Positions 58,150 through 60,197 of a DNA stretch of 64,000 bases are shown here, in pieces (the first letter of the stretch is position 1; each line of letters opens with the position of its first letter). A program made the translations under genes and the position numbers. Origin of the DNA: an uncultured delta proteobacterium. GTDB taxonomy: Bacteria; Desulfobacterota; Binatia; UBA9968. Location of the stretch: contig CAVWLW010000033.1 in the NCBI GenBank assembly GCA_963755715.1, positions 96,001-160,000 on the forward strand, given 5' to 3'. The notes under the pieces are model-generated. The model worked only from the letters and a program-made list of their open reading frames with translations, was not told the DNA's origin and did no database searches.

Positions 58150-59133
58150 ATGAAGACCCTGAGCAGAGTGTTGATGTTGTTGCTTGTGCTGACGCCAAGA
58201 ATCTTAAGCGCGCAGACGAAGCTCAAGGTCGCCTATCCGACTACCGTCGGTTCGATGGCGGTTATTTGGGTGACCAAAGACGCTAAGCTGTTTGAAAAGT
58301 ACGGGCTCGACGTTGAGTTGATTTACGTTGCCGGCAGCTCGAGGATTGTCCAATCGATGCTGGCCAAAGACATTCCGATTTCCGAGATCGCGATTCCGGC
58401 GGTCATCCAGGCCAATCTTGCCGGAGCGGATCTGGTGATGCTCGCCGGTCCCAACAACAAGCCGGGACAAAAGATCATGGTCAAGCCGGAGATCAAGCGG
58501 CGCGAAGATCTGAAGGGCAAAAAGATCGGCATCAGCCGCTTCGGCACCTCGGACGATTTTTTGCTGCGCTACGTGCTCGGTCAATGGAATCTCCAGGCTG
58601 ACCGTGACGTGGCGTTGGTCCAGATGGGCGGCTCGCCTGAGACTCTCGCGGGCTTGGCGGCGGGCGCCATCGATGGCGGTTTGCTCGCTTCGCCGCTCCA
58701 TCTCCAGGCCGCCAAGTTCGGCTACCATCTACTCGCGGACCTGAGCACCATCGGCATCGATTATCAGGGCGCGGGTGTGGTGACGACGCGAAGCTACATG
58801 CGCGAGGCGCCCGATGTCACGCGGCGCTATGTGCGCGCCTACGTTGAGGGCTTGCACCGTTTCAAGACCGACAAGAATTTCGCCGTGAAAGTGATCGGCA
58901 AGTACTCGCGCAGCACGGACCAAGAAGCGCTGGAAGAAACCTACCAGCACTACGCCGTCAAGATTATGCCCAGAGTTCCCTATCCGACGATCAAAGGAAT
59001 TCAAATGGTGCTCGACGAAATCGGTTCGCGCACGCCGAAGGCCAAGAGCCTCGCGCCTGAGAGTTTTATCGACATCAGCTATTTGAAAGAGCTCGAGCAG
59101 ACTGGATTCATCAAGAAGCTTTACGGCGAGTAG
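58150..59133 (+). CDS. NMT1/SsuA-like ABC substrate-binding protein
   Basis: Signal peptide; FEKYGLDVEL; DLKGKKIGISRFG; G.IDG. Confidence 0.9.
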   Translation: MKTLSRVLMLLLVLTPRILSAQTKLKVAYPTTVGSMAVIWVTKDAKLFEKYGLDVELIYVAGSSRIVQSMLAKDIPISEIAIPAVIQANLAGADLVMLAGPNNKPGQKIMVKPEIKRREDLKGKKIGISRFGTSDDFLLRYVLGQWNLQADRDVALVQMGGSPETLAGLAAGAIDGGLLASPLHLQAAKFGYHLLADLSTIGIDYQGAGVVTTRSYMREAPDVTRRYVRAYVEGLHRFKTDKNFAVKVIGKYSRSTDQEALEETYQHYAVKIMPRVPYPTIKGIQMVLDEIGSRTPKAKSLAPESFIDISYLKELEQTGFIKKLYGE

Positions 59134-59279
59134 TTCGTCACATTGCTACTGATGTATCTGACAGGATCGCTTTGTCCAGTTCATCGATCAAAAAGCTCTC
59201 CGGCAATTTTGAATATTCAGTCAAAAAGTTTTTTCAGCGAGCGACAACGAGCGCGAGATTATATTCTCACGGATTATTA

Positions 59280-59308
59280 TTGACAGTTCGAAACCACTTT
59301 CGTAAACT
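59280..59308 (+). promoter_or_regulatory. Near-consensus sigma70 promoter
   Basis: TTGACA (59280-59285), 17-nt spacer, TAAACT (59303-59308), AT-rich upstream tract. Confidence 0.75.
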
Positions 59309-59339
59309 GCCTTCAGCAGGGAAAGGAGGTGGTCCAGAC

Positions 59340-59381
59340 ATGATTGATAAATGTATTGTCTGCGAGGTGGCTGAGACCTAG
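59340..59381 (+). CDS. Putative 13-aa micropeptide MIDKCIVCEVAET (or coding part of a small RNA)
   Basis: Follows the promoter and an extended SD AAAGGAGGTGGTCCAG (59322-59337); carries CxxC; followed by a long hairpin. Confidence 0.55.
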   Translation: MIDKCIVCEVAET

Positions 59382-59387
59382 GCTCTA

Positions 59388-59443
59388 GGCGGATTCTTTG
59401 ACGGGGATTCGGGCCTGGAGCCTGGGAATCCCCCTCAGTCCAC
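59388..59443. terminator. Long GC-rich stem-loop closing the small transcription unit
   Basis: Core GGGGATTC-GGGC-ctgga-GCCT-gg-GAATCCCC, extendable by tga/tca and ggcggat/gtccacc. No U-tract. Confidence 0.5.
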
Positions 59444-59456
59444 CTATAGGTCCGCT

Positions 59457-60197
59457 TCAACGGCTGCTTCGGCTGTCGCTTGAAGCGGACCTTCTTTTTT
59501 TCAGCAACTCGAGCGCGGCGCCGGCGGTTTTTCTGCTCTCGCGATTCTCGCTTTCGCTGGCCTCGCGTAAAGCGATGACAAATTGCTCTGACGGCGATCC
59601 TAAGTCGGCCAGGACGATCGCTGCAGCATTGCGGACCCGAGAGTCCGCGTCTTCCAAGTAAGTTTTCAGCAAAAGACTCTTGTCGTTGTCATTGAGATCC
59701 GCTCTTTGCTTCAGGCAAATGGCGGCGGCGACTCTGACGGTTGGATTGTCATCGCGCAGCCCCTTCAGCAATGCCGCCAGACTGGCGTCGTCGTTTAGAG
59801 TCAGGTCGCGGATACAGTACAGCGCCATCCTTTTTTGGTTGGCTGTGCCGTTGGCGCTGAGTTCTATCAGATGGCCGATATGGTTATCATCGTTTTTGGC
59901 GAGGCGAACGAGCAGAAGGGCGACCGCCCACCGGATATCCGGTTCTTGATGATCCAGTGCGTCGAGTAAGACTCGTATGACGGTGTCGTTTGGAGACGGA
60001 AGTTGTCCTAGGATATATGCGACCGGCCAGTAATTTTTTTTTCCTGGTTGAGTGAGCCGTTCAAGAAGCAAGGCGCGCAGGTCGGCCGATTGCCCGGCCA
60101 ACGGGAAAAGGGCATCGACCGCGGCCCGAATCGTCGGCTTGTCGTGATGATCCAAGTCGGCAATGAGCGCGGCGATCTCGCTCTCGGCTTTAGTCAC
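59457..60197 (-). CDS. HEAT repeat protein
   Basis: Repeated L.D....(I/V)R.AA...L motifs (HDKPTIRAAVDAL, QEPDIRWAVALLL, DNPTVRVAAAICL, ADSRVRNAAAIVL). Confidence 0.85.
   Translation of the reverse strand: MTKAESEIAALIADLDHHDKPTIRAAVDALFPLAGQSADLRALLLERLTQPGKKNYWPVAYILGQLPSPNDTVIRVLLDALDHQEPDIRWAVALLLVRLAKNDDNHIGHLIELSANGTANQKRMALYCIRDLTLNDDASLAALLKGLRDDNPTVRVAAAICLKQRADLNDNDKSLLLKTYLEDADSRVRNAAAIVLADLGSPSEQFVIALREASESENRESRKTAGAALELLKKRRSASSDSRSSR

Follow-up and report, generated by a model that had tools for sequence, protein, structure and literature searches.

A stand-alone small-RNA gene with an extended 16S rRNA-complementary box and an apparently translated 13-codon reading frame in an uncultured Binatia bacterium

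What is encoded by the short unit that lies between two convergent genes at positions 59280-59501 of the stretch of DNA studied here, 64,000 nucleotides of contig CAVWLW010000033.1 from an uncultured delta proteobacterium of the class Binatia (hereafter the window)? The unit is self-contained, consisting of a promoter, a 5' box complementary to the 3' end of the 16S rRNA, an open reading frame (ORF) of 13 codons and a terminator. It had been noticed in a first-pass annotation as a hidden, independent transcription unit, and the analysis supported this view: no match to Rfam was obtained in the window at the gathering thresholds, and the promoter, box, ORF and terminator were present in 30 of 30 aligned copies from the same order. 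The element is a real, independently transcribed small-RNA (sRNA) gene, and chance as its origin was ruled out by its conservation across phyla together with covarying helices. As for its role, we give an even chance to the reading that it is a structured, ribosome-engaging RNA in which being translated counts for more than the peptide made.

The 5' box (GGAAAGGAGGTGGTCCAG, 59320-59337, plus strand) is complementary to the last 18 nucleotides of the organism's own 16S rRNA. The first-pass annotation had claimed 16 contiguous pairs including one G-U for AAAGGAGGTGGTCCAG at 59322-59337, on the basis of the usual bacterial 16S 3' end, and the match was confirmed against this genome's own 3' end, as its single assembled 16S gene ends ...GCGGCUGGAUCACCUCCUUUCU. 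When the preceding GG at 59320-21 was included, the pairing extended to 18 contiguous pairs with two G-U, reaching the last base of the annotated 16S gene. When both strands of the 76 contigs (7.4 Mb) were scanned, this run was exceeded only by the antisense of the rDNA, the runners-up being three runs of 16 pairs with two to five G-U each. The predicted energy of the duplex between the box and the 16S tail was -33.7 kcal/mol, compared with -8.7 kcal/mol for a plain GGAGG, and pairing of the tail with a second, internal Shine-Dalgarno (SD)-like motif (GAGGTGG, 59364-59370, plus strand, ending 5 nucleotides before the last sense codon) was predicted at -15.8 kcal/mol. The box AAGGAGGTGGTC (GAAAGGAGGTGGTC) was invariant in all 29 aligned order-level copies and recurred across phyla with the GGUC beyond the usual SD included; the comparison of homologues thus showed that the extension beyond GGAGGT, on which the original proposal had depended, is conserved.

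Conservation among relatives was examined with a 246-nucleotide query, which gave a DNA match in 37 of 41 related genomes (the window's own counted) and in 22 of the 22 genomes that were at least 90% complete and at most 5% contaminated, nearly always as one match per genome. The order-level alignments contained 30 copies, later 29 after one that was 99% identical to the window (L003) was dropped. The sigma-70-type promoter of the window, TTGACA-17-TAAACT (59280-59308, plus strand; 10 of 12 consensus matches), has its -35 box at 59280-85 and TAAACT at 59303-08 across a spacer of 17 nucleotides, and all 30 copies had TTGAC[AT], a spacer of 17-18 nucleotides and TAnnnT, with TTGACA in 29 and TAAACT in 21. 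The string CTG-Y-GAGGTG-N-CTGAGAC-Y-TAGGCT was invariant or nearly so among the same copies. Every copy (30/30) also had an in-frame ATG or GTG and a stop codon 6 codons past the second Cys codon, and these were kept in one copy with a 3-nucleotide insertion and in four with a 3-nucleotide deletion. Homologues with the layout of promoter, extended SD, ORF and hairpin, whose absence would have spoken for an ordinary small ORF or for chance, were thus present in relatives and also in other phyla.

A pattern scan over 185,579 species genomes yielded at least 120 loci; among the matches listed, 88 were actinobacterial by record title and 32 were from other groups. The former came from Mycobacterium and its relatives, Nocardia, Streptomyces, Kitasatospora, Saccharopolyspora, Actinomadura and others. 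The latter came from Candidatus Binatia, metagenome-assembled genomes (MAGs) titled delta-proteobacterial with Binatia-type sequence, Terriglobales, Blastocatellia, Acidiferrales, Dehalococcoidia, Ignavibacteriales, Zixibacteria, Eisenbacteria, an isolate of Leptospira weilii, one MAG titled Gammaproteobacteria and unclassified MAGs. By phylum-level record titles, the same architecture was found in Actinomycetota, Binatia, Acidobacteriota, Chloroflexota, Ignavibacteria, Zixibacteria, Eisenbacteria and Leptospira, so that the layout recurs in at least seven phylum-level groups other than that of the window. Mis-binning of MAGs could inflate this list, yet the ORF and the middle domain take a distinct form in each group. 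The MAG titled Gammaproteobacteria (L075) carried a mycobacterial-type element (LVDLWTCEVAAS) that groups with Actinomycetota, and the genomes drawn from the phylum around this MAG were those also obtained with Streptomyces as the centre; since title and placement disagree, mis-binning or mislabelling is likely in this case. The sequence sets were selected by pattern and many members are related; some counts also include a single row from each of two unpublished genomes, G005 and G327.

Within the class of the window, the exact pattern was found in 18 of 151 genomes, all within its own order (7/8, 2/2 and 8/8 in families f1, f2 and f3, genome G000 not counted), while the reversed pattern used as a control gave none, and 0 of 132 genomes from the other families of the class matched the exact pattern. 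R1, a covariance model for which the 29 order-level copies were the sole input, was used to score 17 candidates per genome; it gave matches in 3 of the 151 genomes, among them a spurious one (L155) and a diverged copy from another family (L154). The detection of L154 by R1 indicates that exact patterns undercount the family; the wider searches used R1 or exact patterns and are limited in reach accordingly. In an even draw of 301 Actinomycetota genomes, a looser pattern was matched in 9, and 7 of these were plausible members when the matched strings were read.

The ORF (59340-59381, plus strand) starts with the ATG at 59340, encodes MIDKCIVCEVAET and stops with the TAG at 59379-81. Among the matches listed, an in-frame ATG, GTG or TTG was located 5-11 nucleotides past the box in 118 of 120, and the stop codon lay exactly 6 codons after the Cys codon in 118 of 120, the two others being one at +5 and one cut by a contig end; the stop was TAG in 110, TAA in 6 and TGA in 3. 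When 91 distinct spacers were considered, the frame of the Cys codon had a well-placed start and was open to the Cys codon in 89, against 1 and 0 for the other two frames, with spacer lengths distributed modulo 3 as 38/30/23, and the stop was at +6 codons in 90 of 91. This frame test is fair because the search pattern fixed TGYGAGGTGNCTG and was silent on starts, stops and spacing, with the caveat that many of the sequences are related. The features expected of translated small ORFs were all found, namely a frame kept across insertions and deletions, a start at SD distance and a stop conserved in position and not in identity. Judged from these comparisons, the reading frame is under selection, which in turn indicates that the ORF is translated. 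Two aspects of codon choice were observed besides: UUG served as the start in 71 of 118 among the matches listed, mainly in mycobacteria, Kitasatospora, Ignavibacteria and Dehalococcoidia, and the stop was UAG in 110 of 119, where UGA is the usual stop in high-GC actinobacteria.

The RNA is predicted to be highly structured. The fold of a 191-nucleotide stretch had z = -6.85 relative to shuffled sequences, none of the 200 shuffles being as good. In the minimum free energy (MFE) fold, the start codon is placed in the loop of a hairpin, P0 (59335-59362, plus strand), formed by CAGACA and TGTCTG. In other clades, the pairing is between the GUCC of the box and a GGAC that precedes the Cys codon, with the W/R-Thr codons (NGG ACN) as the 3' strand; AUCCUGA with UCAGGAU is an alternative pair of partners, as is CAGACA with UGUCUG in the window. 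At least four contiguous P0 pairs were found in 88 of the 91 distinct spacers, and a permutation test gave a mean of 5.38 for own partners against 5.12 (sd 0.07) for permuted ones, a weak specificity that is real but small. A second helix, P1, connects the end of the ORF with the region just before the terminator: in the window, GGTGGCTGAG (59366-59375, plus strand; codons Val-Ala-Glu) pairs with CTCAG-T-CCACC (59434-59444, plus strand), the 3' strand being identified by covariation and duplex folding. Generally, GGUGNCUGNN (Val, Ala and the next codons) pairs with NNCAG(N)NCACC, a pairing recovered by alignment-free duplex folding in most of some 149 sequences. In a model-fitted alignment of 93 rows (A2, one row of which is a stray antisense match to the terminator), the two halves of P1 were paired in 95.5% and 92.0% of cases, with pair types of GC 44/GU 18/AU 5, CG 60/AU 10/UG 8 and GC 34/CG 15/UA 7. 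The whole structure was 91.4% paired, compared with 71.8% in shuffles and at most 49.6% with slid partners.

Covariation was also observed in the remaining stems. The hairpin P3, GGGGATTC ... GAATCCCC (59403-59433, plus strand; 59403-10 pairs with 59426-33), whose 3' strand is the family-wide AAUYCC motif, had pairs changing on both sides at 4 of 8 positions within the order and at 8 of 8 across phyla. The intrinsic terminator (59449-59501, plus strand) consists of a 12-bp outer stem, GGTCCGCTTCAA/TTGAAGCGGACC (59449-60 with 59480-91), followed by the T-run TTCTTTTTTT, and its pairs changed on both sides at 7 of 12 positions within the order and at 12 of 12 across phyla. The long GC stem of the first-pass annotation corresponds to these two: GC-rich stems are indeed present, but they belong to two separate elements, P3 and the terminator. 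For P1, no change on both sides was seen within the order in the MAFFT alignment, as a bulge shifts its columns. A small hairpin over the stop codon, CCTAG-GCT-CTAGG (59377-59389, plus strand), has an alternative long pairing with 59411-59426; in two copies (L023 and L024) it reads CTTAG/CTAAG with the pairs kept, and the middle region varies by clade.

The translated frame raises the possibility that the unit is simply a micropeptide gene, that is, a highly translated mRNA whose 11-19-residue peptide (C-terminal x-T-C-E-V-A-x-x) is functional, e.g. as a thiol or metal ligand or as a small effector of an enzyme; the peptide would then be among the shortest widely conserved bacterial proteins. 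Several observations fit this explanation, including the frame kept in 89 of 91 distinct spacers, a fixed stop position with three different stop codons, a very strong SD, near-invariant Cys, Glu and Val, and a Thr kept with all four third bases, as well as ribosome-protected reads on homologues in passages of PMC4974804. The pattern of conservation in the peptide is harder to reconcile with it. Every conserved residue falls on a helix strand or on the SD-like motif, and no synonymous replacement of GAG, GUG or GCU was seen among the sequences collected, high-GC actinobacteria included. Codons 2-4 vary freely, and the N-terminal half differs in sequence and in length, with 3 to 12 residues before the W/R-T position. 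The first-pass annotation had stressed a CxxC motif, proposing a metal or redox micropeptide; CxxC is present in the window but is not conserved: mycobacteria and 8 of the 30 order-level copies lack the first Cys. The metal or redox version of the proposal is accordingly weakened, all the more by the clade described below, and no conserved partner gene adjoins the element.

Three natural variants point, at the level of sequence, to a peptide that changes while the RNA is kept. In a metagenomic clade (L159, L164, L165, L169, L171, L173 and L179), which accounted for 7 of the 24 matches of a TGR scan, Cys is replaced by TGG (Trp) with all other features intact (MNDCCCGTWEVAGR, MNDGCCGTWEVAGR), and L165 of this clade has neither Cys nor a canonical start codon. 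The diverged member from another family of the class, L154 (G150:C1:3788563-3788765, minus strand; GAAAGGAGGTGATCC, ORF MALANTVICEVAAS), has GCG instead of GCT as the Ala codon together with a compensating 3' strand, CGCCACC, and was missed by both the exact pattern and the Rfam cut-off; this substitution, being synonymous, keeps Ala and may also be counted for the micropeptide. The third variant, L180:1478-1700 (G359, from the Actinomycetota draw), was found with the Rfam model CC2171 at 34 bits and carries TTGACG-17-TACAAT and the box GAAAGGAGGTGGTCC. It keeps GGAGGTGG (GGAGGUGG), but its 15-codon ORF, MPKRGDQWTGGGDRL, reads the motif in another frame and stops 10 nucleotides after GGAGGTGG, so that the RNA motifs are kept with an unrelated peptide. 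Taking both sides together, we regard a peptide with a function of its own as possible but doubtful.

The reading that we favour, that of a structured, ribosome-engaging RNA, may be put as follows. The single-stranded 5' box would load a ribosome onto the ORF (11-19 codons in the family, 13 here), which is wholly enclosed in conserved helices, with P0 around its start and P1 and P2 spanning its final codons and stop. The extended pairing of the box with 16S rRNA would compete with P0, and the translating ribosome would melt P0, P1 and P2; at the stop codon, its anti-SD sequence could pair anew with the internal GAGGUGG, at the fixed distance of 5 nucleotides from the last sense codon, in a geometry like that of initiation. 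The RNA would alternate between a closed, folded state and an open, ribosome-occupied state, and would hold ribosomes, or report free ribosomes or translation capacity, instead of delivering a peptide, the latter being mostly a by-product of the constraints on the RNA. Ribosome binding in vivo, parking at the stop codon and the biological output are what we infer from these features. The combination is unusual in that translation itself is apparently selected on a stand-alone structured RNA.

The presence of the element in RNA libraries was consistent with its transcription. Twelve rows were on record as RNA with at least 0.46 of the sampled words, and four of these, from four studies, were examined (4 of the 22 runs listed). 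In each of the four soil or rhizosphere libraries, one contig of 204-254 nucleotides covered the element, the spans on a 1-kb stretch being 59325-59578, 59335-59572, 59319-59522 and 59342-59579. The unit proposed by the first-pass annotation is thus present in RNA libraries, as unstranded contigs containing the element. The flanks (58900-59307 and 59580-59900) had zero cover in those four runs, which proves nothing.

Several observations weigh against a ribosome-engaging RNA as we picture it. The contigs show no strand, ends or level, and DNA can occur in RNA libraries. Three of the four contigs run 70-80 nucleotides past the T-run, to 59572-79, and the 3' end is therefore not confirmed; the overrun covers the 3' end of the convergent HEAT-repeat gene (window 59502-59579) and could be either read-through or the overlapping 3' end of the convergent mRNA. 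As for the fold, the predicted accessibility of the SD core is about 0.3-0.7, the GUCC of the box is mostly paired in P0, and the U-rich 3' tail and CCACCU are the partners of the box in the MFE fold. The internal GAGGTGG was fixed in all collected members, though the search pattern required it, so the invariance of TGYGAGGTGNCTG is partly by construction. In addition, the Cys codon is nearly invariant, with a single TGG clade in the whole metagenome scan, and the Thr residue is kept while its third base takes all four forms; both would also be expected of a functional peptide. Finally, the patchy distribution (0/132 genomes in other families of the class and 7/301 in the Actinomycetota draw) is odd for a core ribosome-related function.

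Another alternative is a non-translated RNA that acts as a sponge for the 30S subunit or as a guard of the 16S 3' end, the box blocking initiation or protecting or measuring the 3' end and the ORF being incidental. The 18 contiguous pairs to the last base of the annotated 16S gene at -33.7 kcal/mol and the conservation of the box across phyla, GGUC included, speak for such an RNA, and the UUG starts in 71 of 118 among the matches listed could slow the escape of the ribosome from the start. The frame test and a stop fixed in position with three stop codons are, in contrast, unexpected for an incidental ORF; moreover, the GUCC of the box is usually paired in P0, and a single sRNA gene would have to match the number of ribosomes. 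We consider this alternative unlikely. The first of the roles proposed in the first-pass annotation, an RNA that engages the 30S subunit with the ORF serving to load ribosomes, survives in part: engagement through the extended SD, with the ORF loading ribosomes, fits the sequence data best (box invariant in 29/29 and cross-phylum), while a pure, non-translated sponge is made less likely by the frame test.

Control in cis, by a leader or attenuator or through read-through antisense into the convergent gene, driven by translation of the leader ORF, was considered as well. The element in the window is flanked by a gene for an NMT1-like binding protein, on the plus strand and ending at 59133, and by the convergent HEAT-repeat gene. 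The layout resembles that of leader-peptide attenuators, with a strong SD, a tiny ORF overlapping helices and a terminator, and the extension of three of the four RNA-library contigs to 59572-79 would agree with read-through; the contigs are unstranded, however, and the extension may belong to the convergent mRNA. The downstream gene was convergent in 74 of 125 loci examined and differed by phylum, being nitrobindin-like, PNP oxidase or HEAT-repeat. Class IV aminotransferase and THAP4/nitrobindin-like genes are neighbours in mycobacteria, a PNP oxidase gene in Streptomyces, and HEAT-repeat and Cu-oxidase_4 genes in Binatia, with no common neighbour across phyla among the loci examined. Between these same HEAT-repeat and Cu-oxidase_4 genes, the element has the opposite orientation in one Binatia genus (L068 and L076 versus L023, L063, L080, L083 and others). 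When the ORF region was held single-stranded to mimic occupancy by a ribosome, the terminator was kept in all three constrained folds, and an anti-termination switch was not predicted in them. With differing neighbours, a convergent downstream gene and a persistent terminator, no attenuator was seen, and control in cis is very improbable. A leader-peptide attenuator in the strict sense was rejected, there being neither a co-oriented regulated gene downstream in the window nor, among the three constrained folds, one that removes the terminator.

Three side observations concern the surroundings of the element. The last codons of the 246-residue HEAT-repeat ORF (59457-60197, minus strand) run through the terminator stem (59457-59500), by which its real stop or 3' end may be shaped, the hairpin being shared. 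A second small GC palindrome followed by TTTTT lies near 59520-59540. On a Terriglobales contig (L040; 1024-1385 and 4832-4903), the element is preceded at about 3 kb by a transfer-messenger RNA gene and followed directly by a tRNA gene, an arrangement that was seen once and is probably a coincidence.

The third role proposed in the first-pass annotation, a type I toxin mRNA, found no support and, like a chance arrangement, has a negligible probability: a small ORF, a strong SD, a folded mRNA and a promoter-like site on the minus strand (59286-59258) would suit a toxin, but the peptide MIDKCIVCEVAET is acidic without a hydrophobic stretch, the minus-strand site lies in a non-conserved A/T-rich stretch, no conserved antisense promoter or partner was seen in the promoter scan of the window and the order-level alignment, and the element is single-copy per genome and spread across phyla, with covarying helices that also speak against chance.

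The extent of the unit could be defined further. The transcript is predicted to be about 187 nucleotides long (59315-59501, plus strand), its 5' end being placed from the -10 box and its 3' end from the terminator, which is longer than the unit of about 130 nucleotides initially supposed. All the features initially read, namely the palindrome, promoter, SD box, ORF, second GAGGTGG, hairpin and GC stems, were located again at their positions. The imperfect palindrome GAGATTATATTCTC (59255-59268, plus strand), 5' of the promoter, was not conserved among the 30 aligned order-level copies and is probably outside the element; upstream of the -35 box, the sole recurrent feature across these copies was an A/T-rich stretch. 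A 69-residue ORF at 59172-59381 was likewise not conserved in the order-level alignment.

The relation of the element to known RNA families was examined below the Rfam thresholds. The model RF02471 (Ms_IGR-5, 'Actinobacteria sRNA') aligned with 59315-59498 over its full length (model positions 1-184 of 184) at 37.6 bits and E 4.3e-7, short of the cut-off of 45. Conversely, R1 found 92 of 100 loci from other phyla, nearly all full-length, including L036, L042, L041, L065, L034 and L085, all of which pass the RF02471 cut-off. When 15 loci were compared with Rfam thresholds, all six actinobacterial ones passed RF02471, as did those from Dehalococcoidia (L091) and Eisenbacteria (L139), whereas those from Binatia (L046), the same class (L154), Terriglobales, Ignavibacteria, Zixibacteria, Blastocatellia and Leptospira failed. 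The element shares with Ms_IGR-5 the 5' block AAGGAGGUGGUCC, UGYGAGGUGGCUG, AAUYCC...CAG..ACC (here AAUCCCC-CAGUC-ACC) and the terminator, as well as the form of a stand-alone unit of about 160-230 nucleotides, with its own promoter and terminator in 30 of 30 copies here; it differs in scoring below the gathering cut-off, in having a Binatia-like and not an actinobacterial host, and in its middle domain. Given the full-length alignment and the reciprocal detection by R1, we regard the element, from its sequence, as a distant, sub-threshold homologue of Ms_IGR-5 that is under-detected by the current Rfam model. The family itself is already known, and what is new is a sub-threshold member from another phylum. 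The RF02471 model and structure could be rebuilt and the family extended, since P0, P1 and P3 are absent from the consensus.

A second family, CC2171 (RF01867), gave 24.8 bits (E 0.0025) against a cut-off of 75, mostly over the box and terminator. The sequence AAGGAGGTG is common to the 5' box and to the consensus sequences of Ms_IGR-5 and CC2171, both of which open with a GAAAGGAGGUG(A/G)UCC box. In CC2171, which is from Caulobacter and other Alphaproteobacteria, the consensus opens with GAAAGGAGGUGAUCCAG; a start codon comes next, then a long-range helix, a structured central part and finally a terminator, but the UGYGAGGUG block is missing. CC2171 may be distantly related to the present element, or may represent a separate instance of one design. 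There are hints of further sRNAs with the same 5' box in other phyla. The CC2171 model also matched the Thermus thermophilus genome used as a control, below the cut-off.

Ms_IGR-5 was reportedly first described from an Hfq pull-down in M. smegmatis. According to passages in published papers, reads protected by ribosomes fall on its homologues in M. abscessus and M. smegmatis (PMC4974804), Streptomyces lividans provides RNA-seq support (PMC8079986), and a transcription unit is formed in S. avermitilis (PMC8780764); in these passages on Ms_IGR-5, no function is given, and neither the ORF nor the complementarity to 16S rRNA comes up. According to passages in bioRxiv 10.1101/2022.01.24.477521, CC2171 is a Northern-validated stand-alone sRNA in Methylorubrum with no known function. 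Beyond the Rfam names, nothing on the element was found in the literature (including Shell et al. 2015), supplementary sRNA and small-ORF tables being outside the search, and the only bacterial match of nucleotide strings from the box and motifs was to synthetic oligonucleotides. The search found no account of the best-in-genome 16S complement, the frame selection, the P0/P1/P3 model or the cross-phylum spread.

Known systems in which translation of a tiny ORF is the signal provide a first comparison. Leader-peptide attenuators and the bar minigenes of phage lambda combine a strong SD with a very short ORF overlapping a helix. The present element differs from both in lacking a regulated downstream gene and in having a terminator that is predicted whatever the position of the ribosome, and its ORF, at 11-19 codons across the family, is longer than those of bar minigenes.

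An analogy in working principle alone is offered by 6S RNA. This abundant, stand-alone RNA captures a core machine by imitating its normal substrate, and the machine frees itself by copying a very short product from the RNA. There is no relation in sequence or structure, sequestration of ribosomes is a proposal here, and no membership is claimed; by analogy, an mRNA mimic with a super-SD would hold the ribosome, and the tiny ORF would correspond to the short product. On this basis, a more specific form of the favoured reading can be put forward tentatively, which we think rather improbable as it stands: the element would be a cross-phylum ribosome-holding RNA, a translational counterpart of 6S RNA, whose box docks the 16S tail and whose peptide is thrown away. 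An often weak start (UUG) and the internal SD would park the ribosome on the folded RNA, and synthesis of the peptide would melt P0 and P1 and free the ribosome when charged tRNAs and factors are available. In soil bacteria without RMF, such an RNA could serve during growth arrest as a buffer or reporter of free ribosomes, or as a shield for the 3' end of the 16S rRNA. If the RNA does hold or sense ribosomes, it would add a new level to the control of translation in major lineages of soil bacteria and of actinobacteria.

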